Source: Patescibacteria group bacterium (GTDB taxonomy: Bacteria; Patescibacteriota; Patescibacteriia; GWA2-46-9). Taken from it: 64,000 nt of DNA. The DNA lies in assembly GCA_041675205.1 (NCBI GenBank), contig JBAYUF010000002.1:1731-65730 (forward strand), given 5' to 3'. The notes under the pieces were generated by a model. It saw only the letters and a program-made list of their open reading frames with translations. It did no database searches and had not been told where the DNA came from. The position numbers were made by a program, and so were the translations under genes. This document shows, piece after piece, positions 3,411 to 39,111 of this stretch (position 1 is the first letter of the stretch; the number at the start of each line of letters is the position of its first letter).

Positions 3411-3483
<73 letters not shown>

Positions 3484-6148: not shown

Positions 6149-6151
6149 ACA

Positions 6152-6183: not shown

Positions 6184-6203
6184 TCTCAAAACTGCTAGGC
6201 AGG

Positions 6204-11448: not shown

Positions 11449-11568
11449 ATAGGCTTACTTAGTGTACAGAACTATTCGTATGACCGCGCGACCACTTTGG
11501 CACCCTTCCACAGGTTTACTTAGAAACGTGCTTCGCACGCTACCATGACCGAACGTCTTCAACAAGCT

Positions 11569-23020: not shown

Positions 23021-23058
23021 GAAGAGGGAACATGTGTCGTTCCCTCTTCATCTTTTTT
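23021..23058 (+). terminator. rho-independent terminator GAAGAGGGAAC-auguguc-GUUCCCUCUUC-UUUUUU
   Basis: 11-bp perfect stem followed by a T-run. Immediately precedes repeat A1. Confidence 0.7.
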
Positions 23059-23117
23059 AAAAAGTTTTGGAAACAAAAACACTCCCGTTGCACGGGGGAT
23101 GTGTATTGATTTTTAGC
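23050..23117 (+). repeat. island repeat A, copy 1 (approx. CTTTTTGAAAAGGTTTTGGAAACAAAAACAATCCCGTTGCACGGGATGTTTTGATTTTTAGCC)
   Basis: One of three direct copies (see 24994 and 27973). Each follows a GC-rich terminator hairpin, contains the small hairpin ATCCCG-TTGCA-CGGGAT, and ends in TTTTTAGCC. Confidence 0.8.
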
Positions 23118-23279
23118 CTTAGAGGGGCCACCAAGGGACGTGATACCCTACAACGGGTTATAAAATAAACCGACTCAAAGCCCCTAAATCCAACCCAGTT
23201 TGGGTCAGCAACATGCTTTGCCAGTGTCTAGCCTGATGGAAAGCTGTATACTTATAACAATATTAATGATTAGAATTTT

Positions 23280-23879
23280 ATGAATAATAAAGTGGTCTCA
23301 ATTGTCGTCGCCGTTTTGGTAACCCTTGGTCTTGCTTCAGGCGTCTATTTTATGGTGGGTAGTCCCTCCAAAACCGAGCTACAGGTTGACCAAGCAATTC
23401 AAATTGATACTCAAGAACAAGCCGAAACGGATTCAGCAAATGTGACTGAGCCATCAAAGTCCACCTCTCTAAAAATCCTACTAGCCTCAGGCCAACCTCA
23501 GCGCTGTCAGTTTATAGATTCCACTGATCCTTTTAAAACACAGGGCACCGTGTTTATAAATGGTGGAAAAGTAAGAGGAGACTTAATGTCCACAAGAGAT
23601 TCCAAAATAATGAAATTTCATATGATTGGCGATATGGAAACAAATTACGTTTGGGTTGAAGGGATGACAACCGGTGCTAAATCTACAGTAAAAAGTTCTT
23701 CCGCAGTTCCCGGCGATGATAAATGGCAAGGAATTGATAATGACAAAGAAGCCGACTACCGTTGCGATCCCTGGATAGTAGATAGCTCCTTATTTGTTTT
23801 ACCGACAAACATAGAATTTATTGACATGTCACGGCCGATCATAGATCAAGGACCAATCGGTTTGCCTAACAATAACTAG
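23280..23879 (+). CDS. hypothetical secreted/membrane-anchored protein
   Basis: 199 aa. N-terminal signal/TM VVSIVVAVLVTLGLASGVYFMV. No family recognised. Confidence 0.5.
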   Translation: MNNKVVSIVVAVLVTLGLASGVYFMVGSPSKTELQVDQAIQIDTQEQAETDSANVTEPSKSTSLKILLASGQPQRCQFIDSTDPFKTQGTVFINGGKVRGDLMSTRDSKIMKFHMIGDMETNYVWVEGMTTGAKSTVKSSSAVPGDDKWQGIDNDKEADYRCDPWIVDSSLFVLPTNIEFIDMSRPIIDQGPIGLPNNN

Positions 23880-23993
23880 CCGAGGAGTCTCGTCCTGAAC
23901 AGCCCCAAATACTTGCGCACGTTCGCACCTCTCGGCGCTCGACTGCGCTTTGACTGTTTCGTCCTTGCTCGTTCGAATTTTCTGCTTATTAAA

Positions 23994-24035
23994 TAAAAAA
24001 TACCTGGCGCTATGTCAGGTATTTTTTATTAGCCC
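23994..24035. terminator. hairpin AAAAATACCTGGCGCTATGTCAGGTATTTTTT, then TAGCCCTAG
   Basis: Stem TACCTG/CAGGTA with flanking A- and T-runs. The 9-mer TAGCCCTAG recurs at 29505. Confidence 0.55.
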
Positions 24036-24144
24036 TAGAAGGAAATAGTGAAGATTGGCACTCCGGAAGAGGACAGAACTATATTGACCGTCTATTAGAC
24101 CAAGAGTAAGGTGGCCGCACAACTGCAGAAGGAGGAACTGCTTT

Positions 24145-24639
24145 ATGCTCATTAGAATTGAATACTTAGGACAGTTCGTTGGTTGGCGCATTGATTGCGA
24201 CGGTTGCGGCGTCAAGGACGAACACGACCGCGGCCCGGAAGGTCAGATTCTCCTCGCACACAACGAGGAGAGGGAAGCCTACGATTCGGCCTCATGCACG
24301 GAGTGCGACAACAGCCCATGGATTCTCCGCGTCGGTGACGACGACCTCTGTGAGTCGTGTCGCAACGAGGGTCCGCTGACAGCCGATCAACGGCGCATCT
24401 ACGGCCACCTCCTCGATGCCGCCGTCGCCCACGAAGCCGACATACCAGTCAATGATCTACTCACTACCAGGTTAGCTGACACAACCCCTGCCATCGACGC
24501 TCTCCTAGCAAACGTGCTCGGAGCAACAAAATTGGAACCTCCCCAGGACGCCATGAAAATCAAGATACAACTCTTGGGGTCACCTCCTACTGTTGCGTGG
24601 GTACTCAGAAATGCCGCGCGCGGGCTTAAGGTGAGCTAG
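24145..24639 (+). CDS. hypothetical Cys-rich (zinc-ribbon-like) protein
   Basis: 164 aa and GC-rich. Strong RBS GAAGGAGG. Four Cys pairs: CDGCG...CTEC...CESC. Confidence 0.45.
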   Translation: MLIRIEYLGQFVGWRIDCDGCGVKDEHDRGPEGQILLAHNEEREAYDSASCTECDNSPWILRVGDDDLCESCRNEGPLTADQRRIYGHLLDAAVAHEADIPVNDLLTTRLADTTPAIDALLANVLGATKLEPPQDAMKIKIQLLGSPPTVAWVLRNAARGLKVS

Positions 24640-24672
24640 TGTCCTGAAAACGAAGGACCACAGGAGGAGCCA

Positions 24673-24924
24673 ATGAATAATAAGCGAGGAGATATAACCA
24701 AGCTACTAAGGAAACTGCGTGTAGCTGTCAAGGTAATCGAAGATTTTGACCTTCGTGCATTGCGGCGGGAACTGAAAGAAACACAAACAGAGATGGCTCA
24801 GATGCTCGGTGTTTCTCTGCGGACATACAGTACGTGGGAGAGGAAGGAGTCGAACACACCACTTCGAACGCTGAAATATCTCTGCACCCCAAGCAAGAAG
24901 ACGACCGCCAAACGCAAGCGATGA
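24673..24924 (+). CDS. XRE-family helix-turn-helix transcriptional regulator
   Basis: 83 aa with RBS AGGAGG. LRRELKETQTEMAQMLGVSLRTYSTWER is an HTH_XRE-type motif. Confidence 0.65.
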   Translation: MNNKRGDITKLLRKLRVAVKVIEDFDLRALRRELKETQTEMAQMLGVSLRTYSTWERKESNTPLRTLKYLCTPSKKTTAKRKR

Positions 24925-24950
24925 AAACAAGATAGGAACCGCCGAACGAA

Positions 24951-24999
24951 GAAGACCCGTGTGCATTGCAACTGCAGTGCCCGGGTCTTCGTTCTTTTT
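24951..24999 (+). terminator. terminator hairpin GAAGACCCG...CGGGTCTTC plus T-run, preceding repeat A2
   Basis: 9-bp stem with a 22-nt loop, then GTTCTTTTT. Confidence 0.55.
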
Positions 25000-25057
25000 G
25001 AAAAGGTTTTAAAAATAAAAACAATCCCGTTGCACGGGATGTTTTGATTTTTGTTAG
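24994..25057 (+). repeat. island repeat A, copy 2
   Basis: CTTTTTGAAAAGGTTTTAAAAATAAAAACAATCCCGTTGCACGGGATGTTTTGATTTTTGTTAG, near-identical to copies 1 and 3. Confidence 0.8.
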
Positions 25058-25089
25058 TAGAGTACTATCCTTTGGGTAAGGAGGATACC

Positions 25090-25248
25090 GTGAACACCAT
25101 CGAAGACTTGATTGGAATGATCTTTACCGCGGCCGCTGAAGAGGGGTGGCAACCAAATGGGGATACCTTGATGATAGTTGATCCTATCATCTATCGCCTG
25201 AAGCTCGTCGTCAAACCAGATGGCACCATGGTTTGGGAAGACGACTAG
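25090..25248 (+). CDS. hypothetical small protein
   Basis: 52 aa from GTG 25090, 6 nt after AAGGAGG. The track ORF 25051..25248 includes upstream non-coding sequence. Confidence 0.3.
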   Translation: MNTIEDLIGMIFTAAAEEGWQPNGDTLMIVDPIIYRLKLVVKPDGTMVWEDD

Positions 25249-25364
25249 ACCGCCGCCCATGCCCACCACTGAAGTCCGTCGGGCGCACAGCAAAAGATAG
25301 CTGTCGCGCTCGATGGGCTTCTTCATTTTCAAAAGTCAGCCCACCCTTTCAGGTTAGATTTTTT

Positions 25365-25410
25365 TAGCCTCACTCCCGCAGGGATCGTTCACAAAAAAAC
25401 GTGCTTATCC
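25365..25410 (+). repeat. island repeat B, copy 1: TAGCCTCACTCCCGCAGGGATCGTTCACAAAAAAACGTGCTTATCC
   Basis: Direct repeat of 27745..27790. It resembles the forward-strand image of the tRNA-Glu 3' end (TAGCCCCACGGGGAATCGAACC). Confidence 0.6.
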
Positions 25411-25492
25411 ATGTTTTTCATTGCGCAACTTGTCCTCGTGTAAGCATACAGAATCAGAGATTAATCAAATACTCAATTCTCTAATTCCACCC

Positions 25493-26860
25493 CTAAATAA
25501 GTTCAATTGCCACTTGTTTGAAAATATGAACTATGTTGCTGAAATCTTGCTCTGATTCAATCCCTGCAGCTATTCTGACGGTTCTTTTGTCCATACCATA
25601 GTTTGAAAGCCATGTTTTTTCATGCCCAAAACTTGAACCTAAACCAACGCTTTCACCGGCGAGATCTTTAACTCTTTGTATAAACTGCTCTCCGGTAATT
25701 TTTTCTGGCACTGTTACATAAAATAAGGTAACGGCTCCCTCTGGTGCCAATTCCTGCACAAGCTCATTTTGTTTGTGCGTGGGTAAGTTTGGGTGGGAAA
25801 CCTCAAGGCCTGTTATTCCACTTAACGCTTCAGCAAGTTGCAGTGCATTCCGTGCATGATTTTTCATTTTTCCGGCCATCGTTTCTGAAATACTATCTGG
25901 AATTTTTCTTTCATCAGTCGGCTGTAAATATGTTCCTAGTTCGATTCTCCTTGTCTTAATTGCCCTCGTTTTCTCGTCATTATCAGAATATGCAACCCCT
26001 AAGGTTATTTCATTTGCCCCCTCCTGGTAGTGCTTCGTTCCGCTTTCAACAATAACCTTCTCAACATTAAACTTTTTTAGAACTTGTAATGGATTTATTA
26101 ATACTGGTGACGGCAACGTATTGTCAATAATTACAGATAATTTTTCGCGACTATCTCCAGTCACTCGCTTCACCATCCGCTCAAGTTCGCGTACCACTTC
26201 TTCGCGAGCAAGCTCGGTATCCTGCTCAATGCACCTTACGGCTTTACGAAATACAAAAGGATTCTGACCGACTCGGTATTCCTCTATCGAAGCCAAAATG
26301 ATGGCCTGCGTTTCTGCTGATAGCCCAGTAAGATTTTTTCTCTTCTCACAAAACTTGGTCAATATTTTTTCTGACGTTCTATTTTCTTGATAATCCAGAT
26401 TTGTCGTTTGCACAATTTCCCCGACCCCCTCGAGATCGGTTACTTCCATACCTTTAGAATTTGCAACTGTTTCAACCACTATCAGTCGAGGTTTTTCTCT
26501 CTCAACAAGTTCCCGCAAAGCTGCAAGATCGGTGGAGTCAAAAATAACTACCCGTATCCCTAGACCTTCTAACGACTGAATGTCTTTTTTTGTGGTGTCA
26601 TAAATAGCATCAGCACAAAATACTACATCGCCAACCTTCAAACCTTCTGCCGCAATGGCTGAGTGCATCGCAGCTGCTCCAGAATTAAAAAGGGCAACAT
26701 CAGATGCCCCCTCAATCATTTTAGTTAACTCCGCCTCTCTTTCTTGAAGCTCTTTATAATTATAGCGGGCGTAACCAACCTCGTTAATTTCTTCATTAAA
26801 TTGTCCCATGGTCTCGAATTCTGCAGCAATCTTCGGTTGTTTAAACGAACTCTCCGGCAT
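25493..26860 (-). CDS. Cys/Met-metabolism PLP-dependent enzyme family protein (transsulfuration/sulfhydrylase fold) with an ~75-aa internal insertion
   Basis: 455 aa. Family blocks present: SGAAAMHSAI, IVVETVANSKG, SVIIDNT...VESGTKHYQEG (PLP-Lys motif S.TK...GH-like), GESVGLGSS...RIAAGIESEQD. The extra segment lies between the VETxxN block and the IIDNT block. Confidence 0.6.
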   Translation of the reverse strand: MPESSFKQPKIAAEFETMGQFNEEINEVGYARYNYKELQEREAELTKMIEGASDVALFNSGAAAMHSAIAAEGLKVGDVVFCADAIYDTTKKDIQSLEGLGIRVVIFDSTDLAALRELVEREKPRLIVVETVANSKGMEVTDLEGVGEIVQTTNLDYQENRTSEKILTKFCEKRKNLTGLSAETQAIILASIEEYRVGQNPFVFRKAVRCIEQDTELAREEVVRELERMVKRVTGDSREKLSVIIDNTLPSPVLINPLQVLKKFNVEKVIVESGTKHYQEGANEITLGVAYSDNDEKTRAIKTRRIELGTYLQPTDERKIPDSISETMAGKMKNHARNALQLAEALSGITGLEVSHPNLPTHKQNELVQELAPEGAVTLFYVTVPEKITGEQFIQRVKDLAGESVGLGSSFGHEKTWLSNYGMDKRTVRIAAGIESEQDFSNIVHIFKQVAIELI

Positions 26861-26861
26861 A

Positions 26862-27701
26862 CTACTTCGTCAATTTAATAACCGGCATATTCCGAGTAAA
26901 CTCATGCGATGTAAACAACCACTCGATTTTTTTAAAACCGGCGGCTTCAATTTCTTTTTGAATTTCCTCTTTTGTTACGTAACTACGAAACTTTGTACCT
27001 GCAGCCATTGAAATTAGTGGTTGGATGTCCGTATAATCTTCGTCGCTAATTTTCCCCTGCTCATGAATTTTTTTTATGACCTCACGAGCTTTAGGATAAT
27101 CTAGATACCCTTGTTTATCAGCACAATAAATATAAAGAGGAACCTCCAAATAACTGAACAGTCGATACGGTCTACTGGAAACTAACCCCCATTTACTTAC
27201 CACTTCTATCAACTCGCCATTGTTCTCGGGGAATAACACGTTACCTCGACAGAAAAAAACACCGCCAACTTTCAAAGAATCATACATTTTTTGAAACAGT
27301 AGCCGAACCTGATCTCCCCGTATGACGTTGAAAGGACGATGCCCTAATATATAGTCAAAATAATTCTGATAGTTTATCTGAAGCCAGTCTGCTTCAATAA
27401 AATGTTCTTGTTCAAATTTTTCCTCAGCATAGGAAGTCAGCGCATCGAAATTCTCTTTCGCAAAATCAACAACATAAGGATGGGTACCAAGTTTTTTGCA
27501 TAGCGACCTATATTCTATAGTGGAACCAAGTATCATTACGTTGATATCCGACGGTGGTACACCAGAAGCTAGTATTTCTTTCTTTTCTATTTCCAACTCC
27601 TCGTCGTCTGGTCGAGCTGGTATTGGATATTTGTCCCACAGCTCGGCATAGCTCCAGCTCGCCTTTGTTTCATCAATTTCTCTACTTTTTAGCATATACA
27701 C
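26862..27701 (-). CDS. hypothetical protein, possible class-I SAM-dependent methyltransferase fold
   Basis: 279 aa. It appears translationally coupled to the PLP enzyme (stop and start 1 nt apart). VMILGSTIEY...VVDFAKEN...LKVGGVFFC loosely fit MTase motifs I, post-I and III. Confidence 0.35.
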   Translation of the reverse strand: MYMLKSREIDETKASWSYAELWDKYPIPARPDDEELEIEKKEILASGVPPSDINVMILGSTIEYRSLCKKLGTHPYVVDFAKENFDALTSYAEEKFEQEHFIEADWLQINYQNYFDYILGHRPFNVIRGDQVRLLFQKMYDSLKVGGVFFCRGNVLFPENNGELIEVVSKWGLVSSRPYRLFSYLEVPLYIYCADKQGYLDYPKAREVIKKIHEQGKISDEDYTDIQPLISMAAGTKFRSYVTKEEIQKEIEAAGFKKIEWLFTSHEFTRNMPVIKLTK

Positions 27702-27744
27702 TAACTTAATACTTATGACTTAATTATACCTTAGTTCTGACAGT

Positions 27745-27790
27745 GTCCCCACTCCCACAGGAATCGTTCACACGAAAGCGTGCTCACTCC
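27745..27790 (+). repeat. island repeat B, copy 2: GTCCCCACTCCCACAGGAATCGTTCACACGAAAGCGTGCTCACTCC
   Basis: Direct repeat of 25365..25410. Together the two copies bracket the minus-strand two-gene operon. Confidence 0.6.
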
Positions 27791-27930
27791 CTTTGGTCGT
27801 TGTGCTGCTTGTATTTACGGGGCGAATCTCACCACGGTTCAATTTCTCAGAATGGGAGGAAGAAATAAAAGCCCCTAATAGGGCCATATTAATAGGTTTA
27901 CAAAGAACGGTTTAGGAGTTTACAAAAGAG

Positions 27931-27978
27931 GAGAGACCCGCACCATATCACTGGTGTTCCGGGTCTCTTCTTCTTTTT
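27931..27978 (+). terminator. terminator hairpin GAGAGACCCG...CGGGTCTCTTC plus T-run, preceding repeat A3
   Basis: 10-bp stem, then TTCTTTTT. Confidence 0.55.
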
Positions 27979-28036
27979 GAAAAGGTTTTGGAAACAAAAA
28001 CAATCCCGTTGGACGGGATGTTTTGATTTTTAGCCC
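27973..28036 (+). repeat. island repeat A, copy 3
   Basis: CTTTTTGAAAAGGTTTTGGAAACAAAAACAATCCCGTTGGACGGGATGTTTTGATTTTTAGCCC, followed directly by repeat C1. Confidence 0.8.
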
Positions 28037-28105
28037 AAGTGGGTGCGCATTGGAACTCTATTGTTTTGGAGCTGAGAGAATGGTTGAGGTTTGGGGAGGA
28101 GATGA
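28031..28105 (+). repeat. island repeat C, copy 1 (TAGCCCAAGTGGGTGCGCATTGGAACTCTATTGTTTTGGAGCTGAGAGAATGGTTGAGGTTTGGGGAGGAGATG...)
   Basis: ~90% identical to 29503..29578. The track ORF 28023..28259 is probably a translation of this repeat. Confidence 0.7.
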
Positions 28106-28270
28106 AAGCCTTAGATTTTCAAAAGGAAGTGGTGCAAATTGGTACTCCGTAGCGGGAGTGGAACTAGGTCCTGTAAGGTGGAAAACTTTCTTGGCTTTAG
28201 TAAGGGAAGTATATTTTTCAATTACTGAAATTCCGCAATTATATAACCATGCCCCTTAAAACAGAATTAG

Positions 28271-28981
28271 CTATCCTACTAATATTCCAACAATCAAACC
28301 AACCACAAGCGCTACTCCACCAATCACTAACATTTTTAGCCCTGACTTTATTAATGGTTGTTTAGTGGACTTAGTAGCCGCTGCTCCTAAACCAAATAGT
28401 CCAATCAATGTTAAAACTATAGAGACTGGTATGGCTTGCTTGATCGGTAAAAACAAATATGAAAATAGTGGCAACATTCCACCTATGATATAAGAACCAA
28501 ACATGTAAAACCCGCCTTTGAGTGAAATAGAAGGACGGGAAGGAAATACTTCCAGTTCCCTTAGAGCCATTTCTTTCAACATGAGTTCAGGGTTTTGCGA
28601 AGCCGCCTCTGACATCTCCACTGCCAATTTTTCCGGCCAGCCGTCTTTAGCATACATCTCCCTTAATTCTTCTTTTTCTTCTATTGGATAATTTGTAATT
28701 TCGCTTTTCTCCTCTGCTAATTTCCTGGCAGAAACCTCTTCTTCAGACTGGTTGGATAAATACGAACCTATGCCCATAGAAACAGATTCAACAGCAATAA
28801 TAACTAACCCTGCTAGCAGTACCGTAGAATGGTTTCCACTACCTACCGCAATACCGGTGACAGAACCTAAAGTAGACACCATACCATCTTCCATCCCAAA
28901 GACAATTTCCTTGATTACATTCTCAAGTTGTGAAGTTTGATGTTGAATTTTATATGTTTTTTGTAAATCCATAAAAGTCAA
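28271..28981 (-). CDS. VIT1/CCC1-family (DUF125) iron/manganese transporter
   Basis: 236 aa. EIVFGMEDGMVSTLGSVTGIAVG is the VIT-family signature. There is a cytoplasmic Glu-rich loop and C-terminal TM helices. Confidence 0.8.
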   Translation of the reverse strand: MTFMDLQKTYKIQHQTSQLENVIKEIVFGMEDGMVSTLGSVTGIAVGSGNHSTVLLAGLVIIAVESVSMGIGSYLSNQSEEEVSARKLAEEKSEITNYPIEEKEELREMYAKDGWPEKLAVEMSEAASQNPELMLKEMALRELEVFPSRPSISLKGGFYMFGSYIIGGMLPLFSYLFLPIKQAIPVSIVLTLIGLFGLGAAATKSTKQPLIKSGLKMLVIGGVALVVGLIVGILVG

Positions 28982-29217
28982 AAACGAAGCGGATTTTTTT
29001 TCTTAAGTACTCAATAACAAATAAAAACTTAACTATTTTAATTATGCGCTTATTTACAAATTGTTTCCACAGAATAATTTGTTATCCCGCCTTTGGCGCG
29101 ATCTGCGACCGAGGGAATTTGCAACCGGGAACCCCAGTAGAAGTCCTCAGATGCATTCGGACTCTACGGGGCGCGGTCGGACCCGAGTCCAGCTTCTTGC
29201 ATCCGATAGTATAACCA

Positions 29218-29262
29218 AAAGAAAAAACCTGGCGCACAGCCAGATTTTTTCTTTTAGCCCCA
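29218..29262. terminator. hairpin AAAAAACCTGGCGCACAGCCAGATTTTTT followed by TTTTAGCCCCA
   Basis: Stem CTGGC/GCCAG flanked by A- and T-runs. The following TAGCCCCA matches the tRNA-Glu 3'-end image 8 of 8. Confidence 0.5.
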
Positions 29263-29502
29263 TCCTTCGTCGCTAAGCTTCTCAGGACAAGCGGGGAATT
29301 CCGACGCCCTTCGTCGCCAGCAGTGCGACTCAGTGCTCTGTCCTGGGCAGCGCTTGATGCTTCGCCTGCTCACATCCATCGGCGCTCGCGGTATTCGTGA
29401 TTTCTTCCGAAATCACTCAGCGCTCGCTGCTGCCCGTTCGATTCCCACGCGGGGAAGCACATACCAAAAAAGCACCCCTCACAAGGAGAGATGCTTTTTT
29501 GG

Positions 29503-29578
29503 TAGCCCTAGTGGGTGCGCATTGGAACTCTATTGTTCTGGAGCTTAGAGAATGGTTGCGGTTTGGGGAAGATATGGA
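29503..29578 (+). repeat. island repeat C, copy 2 (TAGCCCTAGTGGGTGCGCATTGGAACTCTATTGTTCTGGAGCTTAGAGAATGGTTGCGGTTTGGGGAAGATATGG...)
   Basis: Direct repeat of 28031..28105. It is preceded by TGG, so the junction reads TGGTAGCCC, the same 9-mer that opens the forward image of the tRNA-Glu CCA end (TGGTAGCCCC at 38306-38315). Confidence 0.7.
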
Positions 29579-29641
29579 AAAGGATGCTTTGGCCAAGGAA
29601 ATGACCTTGGCGGCATAGTCCCTCATGGGAGTAGAACACCA

Positions 29642-30505: not shown

Positions 30506-30638
30506 ATCAAATTCTATCGTTTTATTAGTGTAGGGCTAACTCAAGAGACCAAACAACATCTTTCCAACTATAAAAACCACAATCAAACCCACTCAATTAG
30601 CTTGTCTTTAGAAGTAACAAAAGGCACAGAACATTCTA

Positions 30639-31232: not shown

Positions 31233-31241
31233 ACCAAAATA

Positions 31242-32039
31242 TCACCGTAACATTTTTTGATTTATATAGTGCAATAAAGAACGCGCACTATTTATAACAA
31301 GCATAGCTTCCGCCTCTGCGAGCAAGCTATTGTTGGGGTGAGCGAGACTGGATTGATTGCGAAACGTATTCATTGCATCAAGTATTGATGCGAAAGATTT
31401 CAAAACTCGATCCACGTCATGTGATCGTGTAACTTCAGAAGTAAAAGCTGGATGCTTTGTTCTCAATATTTTGAAAAATTCCGTAATACTCTTGTTATCC
31501 GTTTCCGCTACTCCCATTTCTTCACATAAATTTTTCATGTAGCCATGCAATGCTGTGTGGGCCCTATCCATGGCGCTGATCGGACCATTTGTGGCCAAGA
31601 GATTCTCGGCATCAAGCAGTGCACGATCAACAACAGCCGTCGTATTATGAGGTTTTGGTGTTGAAACTGGTGCAGGAACATCAACTAATTCTGGATAAAT
31701 ACAAATAAAACGAATAAAAGGCCCCCCGACCTCACTTATACAATAAGCAACATGCATGAAAGCCTCCTCATCTTGCTGGGTTGTTTTCAGGGCACCCATT
31801 TCTTCATAATCATCCAGTGGTACCGTTGCATGCAAAACATAAAAGTCATCGCCAAAATAATTAGAACCTTCACTTATCGAAAACGGTATCAAGGATAACA
31901 ATTCTGCTGCACGAGACTGTCCTCGACGAAGCAACAAGCGGGCAGCATTCGTGGCGATACGTTGCCATCGTTCCTCGGGCATAGGTTCACCGACAAGTTC
32001 AAATCCAGATGCACCACTGCCTTGGTATAAAAGTATCAT
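31242..32039 (-). CDS. hypothetical protein with a C-terminal Abi_C-like (abortive-infection C-terminal) motif
   Basis: 265 aa. The C-terminal ...FRNQSSLAHPNNSLLAEAEAMLVINSARSLLHYI resembles the conserved R-N-x3-AH(G/P) core of the Abi_C domain. Low certainty. Confidence 0.35.
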   Translation of the reverse strand: MILLYQGSGASGFELVGEPMPEERWQRIATNAARLLLRRGQSRAAELLSLIPFSISEGSNYFGDDFYVLHATVPLDDYEEMGALKTTQQDEEAFMHVAYCISEVGGPFIRFICIYPELVDVPAPVSTPKPHNTTAVVDRALLDAENLLATNGPISAMDRAHTALHGYMKNLCEEMGVAETDNKSITEFFKILRTKHPAFTSEVTRSHDVDRVLKSFASILDAMNTFRNQSSLAHPNNSLLAEAEAMLVINSARSLLHYINQKMLR

Positions 32040-32064
32040 CGCAGTTTATGTGCAAAAGAATTTT

Positions 32065-33282
32065 CTACTCACTAATAGCAGAAAGTATCCGTTGGCGCTT
32101 GATAAATCTATCCAGTAACGGGATACCGAGGCGATACTTACCATACCGAGTTCGGTAAATAAGGCCGTCAATAACGAGCTTTGCAAATATTTGACTTGCG
32201 TGGCTTGAACTAATAGGGCTCTGGAGCAGCCTTCCCCATTGCTCAACTACCTCCTTTACTGTGAATTCATCTTGGCAGTTGTCTAATGTAGACATAACAG
32301 ACAGTAATTCTCGTTCCCTGTCGGTGGCGTTATTCCAGCGCGCTGCAAAGAAGTCTATATCAAGCTTGGCTATTATTTCTTCAAGGGGAACGCTCGGATC
32401 ATTCCTTCCTTGTGTCATCTGGCTCAAAAAACTATTGAATGCTTCCCGACAAAGAAACTGAATGAAATAAGGATAACCACCCGACTCTTTCACAATTATT
32501 CCTACTGACGTATCGCCAAATGTTACGGGACAGTTTTCCCTTTGTATCGGTTTTAGAACCGCTTCTCTGCTCTCTGTGTCAGAGAGACCATGAAGCTCTG
32601 TCACCTCAAACATGCGCTCCGCGTAAGTCCTCGCATCAACCAAACGCTGCTGAAGCGTTGGAAGACCAACGAGAACAAGTAGTAAGGGATAACCTCTTTT
32701 TTGTAACGATTGAAAAACCTCTAAAAGTACTGACAACGGATACTGTCCTTCTTTCCCTTGATCACTCATTTTTTGTGCCTCATCGTAAGCGATTACTATT
32801 CCTTTTACTTGAGGGCTAGCTTTTTTTACATTATTCCAAACAAATTCGAGTGTACTTCGAAGTTTGTCTGACACCAGCCCTGGCTGACCATTGTAATATT
32901 CAAGCAATGCAGCGTAGTCTAGGGAAACTTCGTCTGTTTCCCCGCCAAAACCCATCTTGTCCTTTTGTCCCTTGAGTTGCGATGTAATAATCGAGAGGTC
33001 AGTCAATATTCTTGTAGCAATGGTGTTTTCTGAAACACTAGCCGACTCAGAAAGATCGGTACCTGCCCAAAGCCACTGATTCACAAGAGCGACGGGTTTG
33101 AAGCTATCGACGAGAACGGTCTTGCCCGTACCACGTAGGCCAGTCAGAATCATGTTTTTCATAATGACCTCCTGCTGGAGCAAGTTTATGAATGCTTGTT
33201 TTTCAGGGTCACGACCAGCCAAGTAAGGAGGCGGTTGACCAGCGCCGGGGCGGAAGGGGTTCAGAAAAGGTTCCTGTGTCAT
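32065..33282 (-). CDS. P-loop NTPase, AAA/Arch_ATPase (DUF234-type) family
   Basis: Walker A ILTGLRGTGKTVL and Walker B IVIAYDEAQ. The N-terminal FLNPFRPGAGQPPPYLAGRDPE and a C-terminal winged-helix-like tail are typical of ORC/Cdc6-like standalone ATPases. The start was chosen at MTQEPF (33282). The track ORF runs to 33342. Confidence 0.6.
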   Translation of the reverse strand: MTQEPFLNPFRPGAGQPPPYLAGRDPEKQAFINLLQQEVIMKNMILTGLRGTGKTVLVDSFKPVALVNQWLWAGTDLSESASVSENTIATRILTDLSIITSQLKGQKDKMGFGGETDEVSLDYAALLEYYNGQPGLVSDKLRSTLEFVWNNVKKASPQVKGIVIAYDEAQKMSDQGKEGQYPLSVLLEVFQSLQKRGYPLLLVLVGLPTLQQRLVDARTYAERMFEVTELHGLSDTESREAVLKPIQRENCPVTFGDTSVGIIVKESGGYPYFIQFLCREAFNSFLSQMTQGRNDPSVPLEEIIAKLDIDFFAARWNNATDRERELLSVMSTLDNCQDEFTVKEVVEQWGRLLQSPISSSHASQIFAKLVIDGLIYRTRYGKYRLGIPLLDRFIKRQRILSAISE

Positions 33283-33603
33283 AGAATGAGTAACTTTTAT
33301 AATATTACTAATTCTAGATGTTTCACTAATTCTTGTCAACAAACTAAATGTTTGTAGAACTTATACTTGGCCAATTTTATAGAAATAGGCCATAATGATT
33401 GCGACAATTGAATTGCCTAAACCACTGGGTAACCAGCGGCATGGCAAGAAATCCCACAACGATACTGAACCCCGTGTTCAGCGACTCGTTGTGGGTCATA
33501 TCCCGAAAGGGGTATGGGGCAGAAAGGCTCAGCTGGCGCGGGGCTCTGTGTTGCACCCCAAGCGCCTTGCTACCTACAAGTCGCTTATTTTTATTTTATT
33601 CAC

Positions 33604-34374
33604 ATGGACAACCAATCAACTTCGGGAAGTATCAAAAAACCCTTTTGGCAGCAGTTATGGTTTCTCGTGCCTATGGCTGTTTTGTTACTCATTATCGTTA
33701 GTGCAGCGAACTCTTTGGAAAAAACGAGTGATCAATATTCAGGACCAGTGCAAGCGATGGTTTTTGATTTACCTCCACTCATAGGCAAAACAATAGATGA
33801 AGTTGTAACTGCACTCGGAGAACCAACAGCAGAGGAGGAACCAACAGCAGAGCAAAAGAAGGTTGGGTATACAGAAGGCACAGTAAGCTACGAACACGAG
33901 GGTATCACGCTAATGGTCAACTTTGATGTGCTTACTCGAAAAGTAAATGATTTCTATGTCAGCCCGCCCGGTATAGAGCCGGTGCAAAACATTACGGCTC
34001 TCTTGCAAGCAGCTAATCTCAGAGAAGAAACAACTGATTCATATGTGGTGAGTAGTGTTTCAGCCGGAGACAAAAAAGATGCTGGCTACTCTGGTATTGT
34101 CGTCATTACGAAAGAAGATGCGGAGCGCAAAAATACTATTCAGAAACAGTTTAGCGCGTGGGATGGTTCCCACATCAAACTTACTCGAGTCATCAAAGAT
34201 TCGATGCATGATCCTGATAGCTATGAACACGTAAAAACAACATACGTGGATAAAAGTGACCACCTCATCGTCACCACAACGTTCCGAGGCACGAATGCTT
34301 TTGGTGGCAAAATCTCCAATACTGTAAGCGCTAAGGTCTCCGTCCAGGGAGACGTTATCGAAATACTTGAGTAG
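33604..34374 (+). CDS. hypothetical membrane-anchored protein
   Basis: Start at ATG 33604. N-terminal TM FWQQLWFLVPMAVLLLIIV, then a soluble domain. Unknown family. Confidence 0.45.
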   Translation: MDNQSTSGSIKKPFWQQLWFLVPMAVLLLIIVSAANSLEKTSDQYSGPVQAMVFDLPPLIGKTIDEVVTALGEPTAEEEPTAEQKKVGYTEGTVSYEHEGITLMVNFDVLTRKVNDFYVSPPGIEPVQNITALLQAANLREETTDSYVVSSVSAGDKKDAGYSGIVVITKEDAERKNTIQKQFSAWDGSHIKLTRVIKDSMHDPDSYEHVKTTYVDKSDHLIVTTTFRGTNAFGGKISNTVSAKVSVQGDVIEILE

Positions 34375-34409
34375 TAGGCGTATACTGTGGGGTATAACCT
34401 AAGAAATCT

Positions 34410-34631
34410 ATGGGCTACATACTAAAGCAGTACTTGATCACTTTCGGCTGGGCACTTACCGGCGCTATTTCTATGGCGTTTGCGCTCGGCATTCTCGCCA
34501 AAGTCTTTTCTTGGCTTACCCCGATAGATGAGTGGGAGGAACTCAAAAAAGGGAATTACGCTGTAGCTATCGTATTTGGGGCAACTATTCTTGGTGCAGC
34601 CTTTGTTATTGCACACATCGTTACAGGCTAA
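34410..34631 (+). CDS. DUF350-family small membrane protein
   Basis: 73 aa with two TM helices. LKKGNYAVAIVFGATILG is typical of DUF350. Confidence 0.5.
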   Translation: MGYILKQYLITFGWALTGAISMAFALGILAKVFSWLTPIDEWEELKKGNYAVAIVFGATILGAAFVIAHIVTG

Positions 34632-34633
34632 AA

Positions 34634-35008
34634 ATGAAGCGTAGAGCAGCTATTGCAACCGTCCTGGTCATAATGGCACCGACGCTTGCTTGGGCACACC
34701 CAGGACGCACTGATGCCAACGGGTGCCATACCAACAAGAAAACGAGCGAGTATCACTGCCACGGGGCTCCAGCAACAACATCTGCACGTACGGATGCGCC
34801 AGTTGCCGCTCGAGAAACCGCGCGAGCTACGTCGCCAAGCGTTGAACCAAGCGCTGCCGTTTGTAATTTTGACCTCTATAACTGCAGTGATTTTGCTAGT
34901 GGAGAAAAGGCGCAAGCAACCTTTTTAGTCTGCGGAGGAATAAATAAAGACATTCATCAATTAGACAAAGACAATGACGGCCTTGCTTGCGAAGAACTGA
35001 GCAACTAA
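34634..35008 (+). CDS. secreted Excalibur calcium-binding domain protein
   Basis: Signal peptide MKRRAAIATVLVIMAPTLAWA. The C-terminal DKDNDGLACE is the Excalibur DxDxDGxxCE motif. Cys-rich. Confidence 0.7.
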   Translation: MKRRAAIATVLVIMAPTLAWAHPGRTDANGCHTNKKTSEYHCHGAPATTSARTDAPVAARETARATSPSVEPSAAVCNFDLYNCSDFASGEKAQATFLVCGGINKDIHQLDKDNDGLACEELSN

Positions 35009-35066
35009 AGAACTAGGAATTACGTAATCTTTTTGTGCGAATGTCAAGTAAAAACCGGACACAACC

Positions 35067-35164
35067 GGACAGTATCTGACACTTTTACAACATTTTGACT
35101 CCATATCCGACAGTACCCGACACTATTAGGATATTCTGATTAGAAATTAGACAGTAATAGACAC
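35067..35164 (+). promoter_or_regulatory. three phased iteron-like direct repeats RGACAGTA-N2-3-GACAC (35067, 35108, 35148), ~40 bp apart, upstream of 35187
   Basis: GGACAGTATCTGACAC, CGACAGTACCCGACAC and AGACAGTAATAGACAC. There are additional CCGGACA half-sites at 35055 and 35065. Confidence 0.5.
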
Positions 35165-35186
35165 AATTACCGGGAATTGCCGAATT

Positions 35187-36368
35187 GTGACGCCCAAACT
35201 TCTAAGTCAAACAAGAACAATGGTAAAAGGTGACGCCGCTAAATCATTAGAGAATCTACCTTACTTCGAAGATTACGAAGTCTATGCTCTTTGGAAGTAT
35301 CTCAACGGAAACCTAACGGGTCGACCGGTTTTTCAATTAGTCGACTTATTGGGACCAGGAAACAGTTACCTATCACTGTACGTACTACTACACAACCTAA
35401 ACCAGTGGGGCATAACACTTGAAAATCCAACTTTTGATCGTAAGGGGCATAGATGGTTTTATAAAAAACATCGCACCAAAAAAGAGAGCGAGGCGAAAAA
35501 CTCGCTGAATAACATCTACAAAAATAAGTTCAACTTGGTTGACATAGTGGCCGCGTTTCCTGTTGCTCAGCAACAACGTATGCTCGCTTGGATAGAGTTC
35601 AAAAAAGAGCTGAGCGACAGCAACCGTCAAATCTTGAACTCATTCTTAGGGCGCTATATGGATCTGTTTGTACACGATCAACTAAAGTTGCGGGAAAAAA
35701 GCTTCTACACTTTTGAGCGGCAGATAGAGAAGCTTCTAATGCTACTTCGTGAACGATCTAAAGATTTTGGCAAAGAATTTGTTTTTGAGTACGCACCTCC
35801 AAGAGACGAAGATGGTCTTTCTATCTACTCTCCTTTTCTATTTACTCATTCCATGGTCGCGGCATCGACACTCGGCCTGGTGAAAGTGACGGAAGCCTGG
35901 GTACAAGATGAAGCACCGCCTAAAAGGCAGCGCCACAGCTATAAAATTAGACTTACTATTACTGAAGTAGGCAGTGAGAAGATAAATGAACTAGCTGAGA
36001 AGGTGGTTGGCAAAAGGACTATTATGAAAAACAGCGACGGACTATTTACATATCGAGGGGCACCGCTAAACGTAACCCTTGGTACTAATTATGCACGCGC
36101 TTTTGATATTCTTCTGTCGGACTTCCCTCAGGGAGGTTTTGTTCCTTATGACGTTCTAGAAAATCTATTGATACAAAACGGTTTTGAGCCGAGCAAGAAC
36201 AACGAACAACGCAACAAGAGAATCAATAACTTGCTTAGTGTAGACCAGGGGTTTTTCCGATATGCAAAGTTGAACAACAAAAAGCTTCCTAACAGTGCAG
36301 CGGATGGTAAGTCTATTATCCATATACGCCGAGGAAAGGGTATAGAATTTTACAACCCAGAGATCTAA
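35187..36368 (+). CDS. hypothetical protein (possible replication-initiator/DNA-binding protein served by the upstream iterons)
   Basis: 393 aa with no recognisable catalytic motif. Its position directly downstream of the iterons and upstream of the recombinase suggests a Rep-like role. This is inference. Confidence 0.3.
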   Translation: MTPKLLSQTRTMVKGDAAKSLENLPYFEDYEVYALWKYLNGNLTGRPVFQLVDLLGPGNSYLSLYVLLHNLNQWGITLENPTFDRKGHRWFYKKHRTKKESEAKNSLNNIYKNKFNLVDIVAAFPVAQQQRMLAWIEFKKELSDSNRQILNSFLGRYMDLFVHDQLKLREKSFYTFERQIEKLLMLLRERSKDFGKEFVFEYAPPRDEDGLSIYSPFLFTHSMVAASTLGLVKVTEAWVQDEAPPKRQRHSYKIRLTITEVGSEKINELAEKVVGKRTIMKNSDGLFTYRGAPLNVTLGTNYARAFDILLSDFPQGGFVPYDVLENLLIQNGFEPSKNNEQRNKRINNLLSVDQGFFRYAKLNNKKLPNSAADGKSIIHIRRGKGIEFYNPEI

Positions 36369-36396
36369 AACCATTCCACTTGGTTCCGACTGGGGA

Positions 36397-36424
36397 CAGC
36401 TCAAAACTGAGCTGTTTTTTTATT
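36397..36424 (+). terminator. rho-independent terminator CAGCUCA-aaacu-UGAGCUG-UUUUUUUAUUU
   Basis: 7-bp stem plus a long U-run, 29 bp after the stop. Confidence 0.65.
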
Positions 36425-36819
36425 TGTTTACTTGGTTTTTGAAGACAAAAAAGAAACTGAAAACTAAACCAAGTGGAAGTATTACAAGGTAGGGTAAGGA
36501 TAGGCTTGCAATAACTTTTTTCAGGAAATTTATTGCAACCAGGTGACGTCACACTTATTCAGCCGCTGGCGCGTCACCTCGCTGGCGGCTGATGTGTTTT
36601 GAGATGCTTACTCTAGAACAATGCCGAAAAATTGATCCCTCTCTTGCTGATATAACAGACGAAGAGTTGTTACGCATTAGGGAAAAACTACAAGCTGTTG
36701 CGCTGCTTGCGTTTGAGGATTTTGTAAAAGAAAACGGACTAAAATCAGGACCATAATAAGAGTTTGAAATATCCCGCTTGGGTACTCACTAATTCTTATT
36801 TTCAGGGTAATGTATAAAT

Positions 36820-38346
36820 ATGAGCATGAATACAGTAAAAACTGGGATAATTTACGTTAGAGTTTCCTCTAAAGATCAGGTTGAAAACACGAGTCTAGAA
36901 TCGCAAGAAAAAGCCTGTATAGAATACGCTGAACGAAACGCCATTACGATTATTGAGCCAGCGTTCGTCGAGAAAGGTGAGTCTGCAAAAAGCGCCAACC
37001 GAACTGAATTCCAAAAGGCTATTTCACGATGCGCTGATAAGAAACTACCAATCAAGTACTTCGTTGTTTATAAACTTGATCGTTTCGCTCGAAACCAAGA
37101 TGATCATGTCACTGTAAGAGCCATTCTCAGACGCTACGGTACTGAACTTCGTTCTGTTACGGAACCAATCGACGAAAGTTCACTGGGGCGAGCCATGGAA
37201 GGAATGATTTCTGTTTTTGCAGAGCTAGATAACAATATGCGAACCGAACGGACTAGGGGCGGGATGCTAGCTCGAATACGACAGGGTATTTGGTGTTGGC
37301 AAGCTCCGCTGGGCTACTACCGCCCATACAAGAAAGCTAACATTACGCCTGATGAAAAAATAGCACTCTACATAAGGATCTTGTTCGAAGAATACGCTAA
37401 AGGAACATACACTTACGAGAGGTTGGCAAGATTTATTAGTGATCGCGGATTACGAACAAAGGAGGGTAAGAAACCTTGGCCACAGCTCATGGTAAAAATT
37501 TTGAAAAACGAAGTTTACTGTGGAGTAATAGTCGGACTCGGAGAGAGAATCGATGGTGCATTTGAACCGATTGTTTCAAGAGAGCTTTTTGAACAATGCA
37601 GAAAAATAAGACTTGGCATTGCAAATGGCTGTCGTCGTTCACCAGAAAACCCTCTGTTCCCACTACGACGGATTGTGGTTTGTACCAAATGCAAGCAACC
37701 ACTCACCGGCAGCAGATCTCGGGGGAAACTCGGGAAATACTACCATTACTATCATCATCGTAAACAAGGTTGCGTGGCCGCAAAAAGTATCCCCAATATC
37801 GAACTAGAAAAGATTTTTCTGAATTATTTTCAAAGGATCGCACCCAATGATCGTTTTGAAAAGTTATTCAAAGCCATCATTACTGATACTTGGAAGAGTA
37901 GTTATAAAAAGCTAGACGAAAATAATTCTCGGATTCAAAAACAGATAGAAGTATTGGCTACTGATCGTCAACGTATTTTTGAGTTCCACCAGAATGGTAA
38001 ATACTCCGATGAAGAATTTCAAGAACAGAAACGGCTTATAAACCAACGCATCGAACAAAAGAGGATACTACTAGATGACAGCCGGATTGAAGAATTCGAT
38101 ATGGAGCTAGCCCTCAATTATTGTTTTGAGTATTTGAGAGCCATTCCAGAGAAATGGGGAAAAACTAGCGATGTATCTAGAAAAATGCGCTTACGGGGTT
38201 TGATGGTCAAAGGATTTATATATTTCGACGGCGAACGAATTGAAACCCTCGATATGACAGAGATTCACAGGGTAAAACAAGAGTACGGTGGTGAAAAATA
38301 CCATTTGGTAGCCCCACGGGGAATCGAACCCCGATTTCCGCCGTGA
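36820..38346 (+). CDS. large serine recombinase (phage-integrase/resolvase-type serine recombinase)
   Basis: 508 aa. The N-terminal resolvase catalytic domain is IYVRVSSKDQ...(catalytic Ser)...VYKLDRFARN. Then comes a recombinase domain, a zinc-ribbon (CTKCKQP...C) and a coiled-coil. The last 41 nt overlap the tRNA-Glu gene on the opposite strand. Confidence 0.85.
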   Translation: MSMNTVKTGIIYVRVSSKDQVENTSLESQEKACIEYAERNAITIIEPAFVEKGESAKSANRTEFQKAISRCADKKLPIKYFVVYKLDRFARNQDDHVTVRAILRRYGTELRSVTEPIDESSLGRAMEGMISVFAELDNNMRTERTRGGMLARIRQGIWCWQAPLGYYRPYKKANITPDEKIALYIRILFEEYAKGTYTYERLARFISDRGLRTKEGKKPWPQLMVKILKNEVYCGVIVGLGERIDGAFEPIVSRELFEQCRKIRLGIANGCRRSPENPLFPLRRIVVCTKCKQPLTGSRSRGKLGKYYHYYHHRKQGCVAAKSIPNIELEKIFLNYFQRIAPNDRFEKLFKAIITDTWKSSYKKLDENNSRIQKQIEVLATDRQRIFEFHQNGKYSDEEFQEQKRLINQRIEQKRILLDDSRIEEFDMELALNYCFEYLRAIPEKWGKTSDVSRKMRLRGLMVKGFIYFDGERIETLDMTEIHRVKQEYGGEKYHLVAPRGIEPRFPP

Positions 38347-38380
38347 AAGGGCAGCGTCCTAACCGTTAGACGATGAGGCC
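38306..38380 (-). tRNA. tRNA-Glu (anticodon TTC), CCA encoded
   Basis: The reverse complement is GGCCTCATCGTCTAACGGTTAGGACGCTGCCCTTTCACGGCGGAAATCGGGGTTCGATTCCCCGTGGGGCTACCA. It folds as a cloverleaf (acceptor stem with two G:U pairs), with anticodon loop CUUUCAC and TpsiC loop TTCGATT. Confidence 0.8.
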
Positions 38381-39009: not shown

Positions 39010-39111
39010 CACATCCACCCTCCATCGTGTGGTGCCACACTTATAGCTCATCAATTAAAGACCGTCAATGCTAATTGCGACGATGCACATGAACCCGTAT
39101 ACTCGGGTCAT

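Follow-up and report, generated by a model that had tools for sequence, protein, structure and literature searches.

Several described mobile systems either carry an attachment (att) site within a coding sequence or target tRNA genes. SSV-type archaeal tyrosine integrases have their att site within their own open reading frame (ORF) (PMC7253208, PMC8371274), and in the integration-dependent immunity of mycobacteriophages such as BPs, an attP located in a coding sequence alters the C-terminus of the product (PMC3694055, PMC4557955). Of the 937 tycheposons of Prochlorococcus, 27 carry a large serine recombinase (LSR) (bioRxiv 10.1101/2020.12.28.424599), and serine integrases were stated in 2020 as not known to target tRNA genes (PMC7192596). 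The present analysis concerns an LSR element located at a tRNA-Glu gene of a Patescibacteria group bacterium (GTDB lineage GWA2-46-9; assembly GCA_041675205.1), within a stretch of 64,000 nucleotides (contig JBAYUF010000002.1, positions 1,731 to 65,730, forward strand), which is referred to below as the window and supplies all coordinates given without a locus name. The window forms part of the 186-kb ENA metagenome contig ERZ27247358 k141_1660735, and the homologues of its TsaD protein and its pyridoxal phosphate-dependent enzyme assign it to Patescibacteria. In this element, attP appears to lie inside the recombinase gene itself, such that integration would exchange the C-terminus of the enzyme. 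A literature search of incomplete coverage returned no description of this arrangement for any serine integrase or in Patescibacteria; the parallels that were found involve tyrosine recombinases, namely the SSV-type integrases and integration-dependent immunity.

A preliminary description of the window, made from its sequence alone, interpreted positions 23021–38380 as an accessory island built by serial insertions at tRNA-Glu and divided into modules by repeats A, B, and C and by short junctions that mimic the tRNA 3′ end. The best overall explanation of the follow-up data is an LSR element with attP in its own gene at tRNA-Glu, accompanied by an older tract built at the same tRNA, to which we assign a probability of roughly 0.8.

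Large serine recombinase and its tRNA-Glu target

The integrated, short form of the LSR, a protein of 508 amino acids, is encoded on the plus strand at 36820–38346 and contains the Resolvase (PF00239, E 5.9e-31), Recombinase (PF07508), and Zn_ribbon_recom (PF13408) domains of Pfam, in addition to matching the integrase family phrog_95. Within the resolvase catalytic domain, residues Y12, R14, V15, S16, and S17 are invariant across 27 homologues, and the zinc ribbon likewise displays four invariant cysteines (C288, C291, C318, and neighbouring positions). The structure model shows paired long helices at residues 343–390 and 396–420, which are predicted to form a coiled-coil. A scan of IMG/VR returned no close member of this LSR family, the best identity being 38%, and thus provides no evidence of a phage nature for these elements.

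The integration target, tRNA-Glu(UUC), lies on the minus strand at 38306–38380 on the attR side (ARAGORN; Rfam tRNA model, 59.3 bits; sequence). The LSR ORF overlaps the 3′ half of this tRNA by 41 nt, and its stop codon falls in the anticodon loop. Both genes were found exactly where the preliminary description had placed them, and its reading of the pair as an integrase lying next to a tRNA attachment site is genuine: 50 fetched loci contain a homologous LSR ORF that stops inside a minus-strand tRNA, which is tRNA-Glu in 40 cases, tRNA-Arg in five, tRNA-Met in two, and tRNA-Lys, tRNA-Trp, and tRNA-Ala in one each, with a modal overlap of 40 nt. Three long contigs carry LSR homologues of 50–63% identity, which end 39–41 nt within minus-strand tRNA-Glu-UUC, tRNA-Glu-CUC, and tRNA-Arg-UCU, respectively.

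The intact tRNA-Glu gene shares its 3′ end, CCA included, with the LSR codons TTG GTA GCC, in which the CCA bases double as part of the Leu codon (TTG). Among the five tRNAs of the window, it alone encodes CCA (the others lie at 3410–3484, 11361–11449, 55996–56067, and 56457–56529). After the Val codon of the core, the last 11 codons of the short form, APRGIEPRFPP, correspond to the acceptor and T arm of the tRNA read in antisense, and the same antisense translation accounts for the family consensus C-terminus ...LVAPRGxEPxLPx. Among the 120 closest homologues, 102 display this tRNA-antisense tail (LVAPRGxEP), seven have a cut or different tail, and the remaining 11 are longer and terminate in ...LVALVGKSWNRIVEHLxxWxxF.... 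In the AlphaFold model of one such long form, P0086 (mean predicted local distance difference test score, pLDDT, of 84), the tail is a helix spanning residues 502–526 with a pLDDT of about 76–88.

Displaced tail exon and attachment sites

The counterpart of the long tail is found at the opposite end of the element, in repeat C. As the preliminary description reported, repeat C occurs in two copies, at 28031 and 29503, which are 91% identical over 77 nt and unrelated thereafter. It was taken there for a decayed tRNA copy, which is wrong, as both a hidden Markov model (HMM) of the tail and a profile from other loci identify it as the displaced 3′ end of the LSR gene. Both copies, when translated in the LSR frame, give LVGAHWNSIVLELREWLRF, matching the C-terminus of the 11 long homologues. 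Element C2 (29499–29618, plus strand; LVALVGAHWNSIVLELREWLRFGEDMEKDALAKEMTLAA followed by a stop; tail HMM E 3.5e-10) is the orphaned 3′ tail and corresponds to the right half of attP (P-right), whereas C1 (28027–28152, plus strand; FLAQVGAHWNSIVLELREWLRFGEEMKALDFQKEVVQIGTP followed by a stop; also matched by the tail HMM) is a second orphan tail exon with its own attL, whose core reads TTAGCC at 28030–28035. A nucleotide profile built from 23 other loci and run with nhmmer finds exactly these two sites in the window, C2 with E 5.7e-10 and C1 with E 9.4e-9.

The same organization recurs in the family. The HMM built from the 11 long tails detects orphan tail exons in about 26 independent loci, on the same strand as the LSR and 4–9 kb upstream of it. 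All 24 of 24 orphan tails are open over at least 22 codons, and their identity by codon position (0.59, 0.67, and 0.47 for the first, second, and third positions) indicates coding sequence. In these loci, attL consists of a flank, often a terminator, followed by TGGT(A/G)(G/A)CCC and (A/T)AGTGGG..TGGAAC, while attR consists of the LSR 3′ end, the same 8–10 nt, and the remaining tRNA. The sequence common to attL and attR is only (T)GGT(A/G)(G/A)CC(C), which matches the tRNA of each genome, and the smallest shared block is GT(A/G)(G/A)CC.

In the window, this minimal block is GTAGCC at both ends of the current element, at 29502–29507 in attL, with a terminator hairpin at 29470–29500 just before it, and at 38308–38313 in attR, both on the plus strand. 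The core is embedded in TGGTAGCCC at 29500 and again at 38306, where the target gene is regenerated, and the LSR gene abuts attR, as in integrative genetic elements of tRNA genes in the Islander/TIGER sense. Joining the left half of attP (P-left, to 38313) to P-right (from 29508) yields an ORF of 534 amino acids, like the long-form homologues, and the reconstructed attP resembles that of a 4,614-bp circle formed by one of them. On these sequence comparisons, the current element would span 29502–38313 (8.8 kb), and its integrase gene appears to contain the att site and to be partitioned on integration. Recombination between attP and attB by the LSR with a 2-bp crossover is suggested by the attL/attR core GTRRCC, together with the circle of that one homologue.

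Regarding C1, four of the six differences from C2 within the first 22 codons are synonymous (manual count). Since C1 is unrelated to C2 past 77 nt and differs from it mostly at synonymous positions, it can be regarded as an independent attL, and the two copies would represent attL-type sites of two related but distinct elements. An LSR element that carries attP inside its own gene and is targeted to tRNA-Glu, plus a second orphan attL, is therefore the part of the interpretation in which we have the greatest confidence.

Free form and tandem elements

The long-form homologue P0086 is present in eight Logan contigs from different runs, every one of which is 4,644 nt long. In the five that were read, the ends overlap by 30 nt, and all five represent the same tRNA-free circle of 4,614 bp, identical in sequence and opened at different points; this circle is a free form of a sister element. 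The five contigs are L168–L172 (runs SRR26786760, SRR26786761, SRR26786768, SRR26786769, and SRR26786771), and the circle encodes the long-form LSR, a small upstream ORF, a DUF2335 protein, and a few small ORFs.

Repeated insertion at one tRNA, as put forward in the preliminary description, does occur in the LSR family in the form of true tandem arrays. Locus L173 (1347–8089) holds a tandem of two LSR elements at tRNA-Ala(UGC), in which the tail exon of the second element continues the reading frame of the first LSR, and about 65 nt are common to the second LSR and the tRNA; furthermore, L149 carries two tail exons. The family also extends beyond small cargo elements, since in L084 (3600–9678), a family LSR ends a larger element with a TraG-like coupling protein, an excisionase-like HTH_17 protein, and a second protein with a recombinase domain. 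Relaxase, TraG-like, and primase genes are present in L175, a long-form locus without a tRNA.

Comparison with the relative L179

The tract to the left of the element can be compared with L179, a 238-kb contig with the same flanks as the window, comprising T2SSE-TsaE-TsaD-tRNA-Glu on one side and DUF6938-DUF3048-HSP20 on the other. A relative carrying tRNA-Glu free of the LSR element, for which the preliminary description had proposed to look, is thus available, but it is distant (57% TsaD identity) and holds other cargo at the site. L179 lacks the LSR element, the VIT1 transporter gene, the module with the XRE regulator, and repeats A and C; instead, it contains RelA/SpoT and toxin-antitoxin-like genes, which are bracketed by two copies of a GC-rich mini-module, one of them directly behind tRNA-Glu with no integrase nearby. 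This tRNA-Glu encodes CCA without an adjacent LSR, which weakens the notion that CCA marks tRNA ends supplied by the element and would date C1 before C2.

Two claims about the extent and content of the island did not survive this comparison. The operon for a pyridoxal phosphate (PLP)-dependent enzyme and a methyltransferase-like protein of 279 amino acids (25493–27701, minus strand; Pfam) had been listed among the accessory cargo of the island; L179 carries it at the same place with 81% nucleotide identity. Its proteins are 80–88% identical between the window and L179, compared with 45–72% for the flanking core genes, which hints, at the level of sequence, that the operon itself may have moved. 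Similarly, the start of the island had been set at 23.0 kb, and the comparison with L179 indicates that the variable region probably begins near 18.3 kb.

On the tRNA-proximal flank, a TsaD ORF of 471 amino acids (38836–40251, plus strand, GTG start) overlaps a GC-rich minus-strand gene of 154 amino acids at 38533–38997. The called TsaD starts at 39112 (379 amino acids), an exact look-up of the longer ORF matched no record, and the 471-amino-acid reading is probably an over-extension. A scan of a genome collection with TsaD returned matches only to Gammaproteobacteria of about 45% identity and no close genome.

Repeats, junctions, and modules of the older tract

Repeat A is present in the three copies reported earlier (77–91% identity), each behind its own GC-rich hairpin. 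By repeat comparison, these are A1 (23044–23113), which ends at the T-run before TAGCC, A2 (24986–25051), which is followed by GTTAG rather than TAGCC, and A3 (27965–28030), which forms the left flank of the attL of C1, all on the plus strand. The conserved core of A stops exactly at the T-run preceding TAGCC, and A is a conserved double terminator that displays no resemblance to a tRNA, contrary to its earlier designation as a tRNA mimic. Repeat B is likewise confirmed in two copies, which share 73% identity over 66 nt from 25368 and 27747. B1 (25365–25433, plus strand), beginning with TAGCCTCACTCCCGCAGGGATCGTTCAC, lies to the left of the PLP operon and is without an orthologue in L179, whereas B2 (27744–27813, plus strand), to the right of the operon, has an L179 orthologue that reads TGGTAGCCCAATCCCGCGGGGGTCGTTCGCAC. 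The latter contains TGGTAGCCC, a perfect 9-nt image of the tRNA-Glu 3′ end, and B is therefore regarded as a tRNA-derived junction. B was also considered as a second kind of tail exon and rejected, as its DNA is conserved between the window and L179 while its peptide is not.

The hairpins of A and its position in intergenic spacers might suggest that A, B, and C are a dispersed repeat, similar to miniature inverted-repeat transposable elements or repetitive extragenic palindromes, clustered here by accident and unrelated to the tRNA; the search for copies covered 64 kb of the 186-kb contig. We consider this highly improbable, as nhmmer detected no A beyond the three copies and no B beyond the two, whether across the 64 kb of the window or in any fetched locus, C is accounted for as LSR coding sequence, and all copies of A, B, and C lie in one orientation on the 3′ side of tRNA-Glu.

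The junctions were found at 23113, 24030, 25365, 28031, and 29255, as described earlier, whereas the last lies at 29503 and not at 29505. All seven junctions fit TAGCC-Y-N-A. The longer motif TTAGCCYNA occurs nine times in the window against 3.4 expected, with five of the nine on the plus strand within 23113–29254, and all five copies of TTTTAGCC fall within 23111–29252; this excess and clustering indicate that the junction motif is not due to chance. Alignment of the 3′-terminal 45 nt of the tRNA with the junctions, a check that the preliminary description had proposed, was evaluated with window tiles as a control. C2 stands out as the only junction in the top 2% of tiles (TGGTAGCCCTAGTGGG, 13/16), whereas the others are ordinary: the A-tails, 24030, B1, and C1 score no better than 37–80% of random tiles. 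The sequence common to the junctions and the tRNA amounts to only 5–9 nt (TAGCC[C][C][A]), and direct alignment alone would have wrongly dismissed the tRNA link. The proposed mimicry of the tRNA 3′ end by the junctions is not confirmed as a general rule: according to comparative data, C, B, and 29255 derive from this end, and A does not resemble it. For 23113 and 24030, no match was obtained with the P-right profile, with the tRNA past TAGCC, or with anything else past TAGCC-Y-N-A; a tRNA origin for these two and for the A repeats is something that we infer.

The junction at 29255 opens a GC-rich mini-module, M6 (29255–29502, plus strand, 248 nt), which is 81–83% identical to the two L179 copies. 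At its start is a fragment of the tRNA-Glu 3′ end, split into TAGCCCCA and CGGGGAATT by an insert of 30 nt; the module further holds an inverted T-arm-like piece at 29431 (GTTCGATTCCCACGCGGGG) and closes with a terminator and TGGTAGCC. Homologues left of attL in other loci (L116, two copies, 4225–4555; L108, 4723–4905; L082, 5287–5446) start with 14–19 nt of uninterrupted tRNA-Glu identity and finish with a terminator and (TGG)TAGCC. The L179 units lie at 2950–3180 and 5990–6210, and in the second, the two ends are inverted repeats of 9 nt (GTAGCCCCA / TGGGGCTAC). The window has another, decayed copy as well (23880–24029, plus strand), which is recognized from the motifs TCGGCGCTCG and GCTCGTTCGAAT and from its architecture, includes terminator D10a, and ends at the TAGCCC junction at 24030; the D10 repeat at 23992–24035 recurs at 29217–29260 with 75% identity (D10b). 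The predicted fold of the window mini-module is not more stable than that of shuffled sequence (z = −1.3), and no convincing RNA emerged in it from relaxed Rfam searches. These units of 150–250 nt may be trailer repeats of the rtT kind, insertion scars, or an unrecognized RNA.

The rtT repeats lie behind the tyrT gene of E. coli, with the final ~19 nt of the tRNA closing each unit. Units behind a tRNA, each with its 3′-terminal ~19 nt, were likewise found here in L116 (two), L108, L082, L179, and M6. By extension, the window may have experienced one integration only, that of the current LSR element, while the other junctions, A and D10, and the mini-modules would be native trailer repeats of tRNA-Glu made by local duplication or unequal crossing-over, with ordinary recombination shuffling the genes between them. 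The recurrence beside tRNA-Glu of mini-modules in which 14–19 nt matching the tRNA 3′ end precede a terminator (two each in L116 and L179, and in L108, L082, and the window) fits this account, as do the L179 copy directly behind a tRNA-Glu that has no integrase nearby and the older modules without integrase remnants. Additionally, L116 4402–4520 matches the Rfam RtT model over its full length with 18.6 bits (E 0.48), although this best score is far under the gathering score of 45, and the window copy gave no match. However, local duplication does not account for C1, an LSR tail exon whose differences from C2 are mostly synonymous and which is unrelated to it past 77 nt; furthermore, GC content changes sharply between modules (0.40 to 0.58), and the cargo between the units is wholly different in L179. 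A single integration into trailer repeats is accordingly considered unlikely, though it is the strongest of the competing explanations.

The modules form a compositional mosaic. GC content drops from about 0.50 to 0.40–0.44 between ~25 and 38.3 kb, and the individual modules have values of 0.43 (M1), 0.52 (M2), 0.50 (M3), 0.41 (M4), 0.40 (M5), 0.58 (M6), and 0.43 (M7), against 0.495 in the flanks. The sole gene between the two attL sites encodes a VIT1-family transporter (28271–28981, minus strand; PF01988, E 7e-52). Between this gene and the D10b terminator lies a minus-strand leader of ~230 nt (28982–29216), which is possibly a regulatory RNA; a relaxed Rfam search of the leader gave no riboswitch match. 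The older modules cannot simply be decayed copies of the same element, since no second LSR remnant was found anywhere in the window.

The older modules might instead be integrase-less cassettes or satellites with attP-like sites, inserted serially by the LSR in trans to form an integron-like array. Each would have a right end made of a terminator, a T-run, and TAGCC restoring the tRNA, and a left end beginning with TAGCC-Y-N-A, the motif that all seven of seven junctions fit. The repeats can be sorted into such ends, with A (three copies) and D10 (two) on the right and C, B, and TAGCCYTAGARGG (two each) on the left, and the module composed of the C1 tail, VIT1, and the D10b terminator has a proper LSR P-right and no LSR. 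Still, a recognizable LSR half-site is present only in C1, no free circle of such a cassette was seen, A and B are without copies in the other fetched loci, and pairing of attP with attB is normally strict for LSRs (PMC3783163). Such an array is thus rather improbable, more so than the trailer-repeat origin. An actual integron was rejected: no tyrosine integrase was found in 20–42 kb, and the junction units fold like shuffled sequence, at the z value given above.

Cargo of the current element

The cargo of the current element (29642–36368; Pfam and PADLOC) comprises a trypsin-like protease (PDC-S45-like), a protein of 197 amino acids, an Abi_C/AbiJ-like protein, an AAA ATPase, a protein of 286 amino acids, a DUF350 protein, an Excalibur-domain protein, and a protein of 393 amino acids, with several lacking a family match. 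When the island genes of the window were compared with 86 LSR loci, nothing was shared except an ORF of 54 amino acids directly upstream of the LSR (36592–36756, plus strand; MCFEMLTLEQCRKIDPSLADITDEELLRIREKLQAVALLAFEDFVKENGLKSGP). It has tblastn matches in 36 of the 86 loci, always just upstream of the LSR, and is the sole other conserved protein of the family. Searches of Pfam, PHROG, and PADLOC gave no match for this ORF, which is a candidate directionality factor or regulator.

The element also contains a LOOT RNA (RF03000) at 33414–33530 on the plus strand, with 88.1 bits against a gathering score of 46.4. In the window and in eight of 16 other loci tested, LOOT falls within the LSR element, in the interval from attL to the LSR gene, on either strand (L116 7076–7192, L099 7544–7667, L105 8156–8276, L108 7109–7223, L086 8654–8775, L106 6083–6202, L088 6957–7086, and L103 9568–9672). 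Its neighbouring genes differ between loci, and LOOT seems to accompany this element family recurrently, as a passenger or as a component.

Proposed mechanism

In the mechanism that we propose, the 8.8-kb element belongs to a family that is widespread in Patescibacteria, and its LSR would insert it at the 3′ end of tRNA-Glu. Crossover would occur within GTAGCC, which encodes Val-Ala of the LSR on one strand and forms the discriminator and the end of the acceptor stem of the tRNA on the other. In the free circle, the gene would encode the long enzyme (~534 amino acids here), ending in an amphipathic helix (LVGxxWNxIVxELxxWxxF...). Integration would detach the tail exon, which would be left at the far end (attL) as element C, and the integrated gene would run into the tRNA in antisense, such that its last ~36 codons are swapped for 11 tRNA-antisense codons. 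The element's own sequence would restore the tRNA 3′ end, and excision would rebuild the long gene. C1 would record the integration of a related element, and C1 together with attR could define a composite element of 10.3 kb. Further left, to about 18–23 kb, lies a hypervariable tract of modules that differ in composition and are split by junctions of a terminator and TAGCC.

As B and the 29255 mini-module are fragments of the tRNA-Glu 3′ end, earlier insertions or rearrangements at tRNA-Glu are proposed to have built this tract. That the whole of it, from ~18–23 kb to 38.3 kb, arose by repeated events at the tRNA-Glu 3′ end is favoured, with less assurance than the LSR element itself; these events could involve LSR-less cassettes, other element types with deeper crossovers, or rtT-like trailer duplication. 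Serial site-specific integration at tRNA-Glu, as originally claimed, is supported by the two attL sites, the tandems in the family, and L179, whereas A, 23113, 24030, and the lack of LSR remnants do not support it.

A number of observations weigh against this interpretation. Mini-modules of the same architecture are present in five genomes and may be native trailer repeats rather than scars. The junctions at 23113 and 24030 and those of B1/B2 gave no match to the LSR P-right profile, and their similarity to the tRNA in direct alignment is at chance level. No LSR remnant was found between C1 and C2 or elsewhere in the window; a simple LSR tandem predicts an LSR 3′ end directly left of C2, where a terminator hairpin is located instead. 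No circular or empty-site form of the window element was seen, the closest relative having the 57% TsaD identity given above. Finally, that the long form of the LSR differs functionally from the short one is purely inferential.

If the two forms do differ in activity, the state of the enzyme would report whether the element is integrated or free. As a tentative and speculative extension, the LSR might act as a self-reporting switch, in which the helix of the long form permits integration, while the short form has altered directionality or activity. The tail swap would then replace, or cooperate with, a separate directionality factor, for which the 54-amino-acid ORF could be considered, and leftover tail exons such as C1 would allow excision from alternative left ends, capturing neighbouring genes. 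If true, this switch would explain the turnover of cargo at tRNA-Glu of Patescibacteria and the travelling of LOOT with the elements.

Significance and comparison with known systems

Serine integrases are valued in genome engineering for their directionality, and how direction is set is an active question; integration that rewrites the C-terminus of the enzyme itself suggests a control principle that is new for serine integrases in the literature searched. The analysis also identifies a widespread small mobile element in the huge, uncultured Patescibacteria, whose mobile DNA is poorly known, and shows tRNA-Glu to be a hotspot of gene turnover in this group. Additionally, it supplies dozens of natural attP/attB/attL/attR sets as reagents and provides the orphan LOOT RNA motif with a genomic context.

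The LSR shares with the serine integrases of phiC31, Bxb1, A118, and SPbeta the set of Resolvase, Recombinase, and zinc ribbon domains and the long coiled-coil, which is here modeled on helices 343–420. As in the serine integrases of temperate phages and related elements, the att sites are short, the core is very short, and the integrase lies at the end of the element by att. In contrast to the phiC31 type, attP is within the integrase ORF, so that the C-terminus differs between the integrated and the free state. Integration is directed to a tRNA gene at its 3′ end, the hosts are Patescibacteria, and the conserved 54-amino-acid ORF stands in place of a recognizable directionality factor.

The mini-modules are comparable to rtT (RF00391) in that they lie downstream of a tRNA gene and carry its last 14–19 nt, but they differ in sequence and structure, with the RtT model remaining unmatched, as well as in the tRNA, the phylum, and the unit size of 150–250 nt. 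At the level of the whole tract, the tycheposons are similar in their integration at tRNA genes, in newcomers pushing earlier elements inward, in partial tRNAs and remnants, and in adaptive or defensive cargo. However, tycheposons mostly use tyrosine integrases and belong to another phylum, and a split integrase gene is not described there; the elements considered here are small (4–9 kb), and the loci examined are without replication genes, except for the primase-bearing long-form contig L175.

With BPs-type immunity, the common feature is that the integration state is read through a protein tail. There, a tyrosine integrase is at work, and the split gene is a repressor that loses a degradation tag with its tail, whereas here, the split gene would be the serine integrase itself and the tail is modeled as a conserved helix. 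The SSV-type (type I) integrases are comparable in that integration at a tRNA splits the integrase gene to the two ends of the element and excision restores it. The possibility that the window protein is itself an SSV-family tyrosine recombinase was ruled out by its Pfam domains, which are those of a serine recombinase. SSV-type integrases, which archaeal viruses and plasmids encode, are tyrosine recombinases that do not survive the split; in contrast, the recombinase described here is a bacterial serine recombinase, in which ~36 codons would be swapped for 11 while all recognized domains stay together in one ORF.

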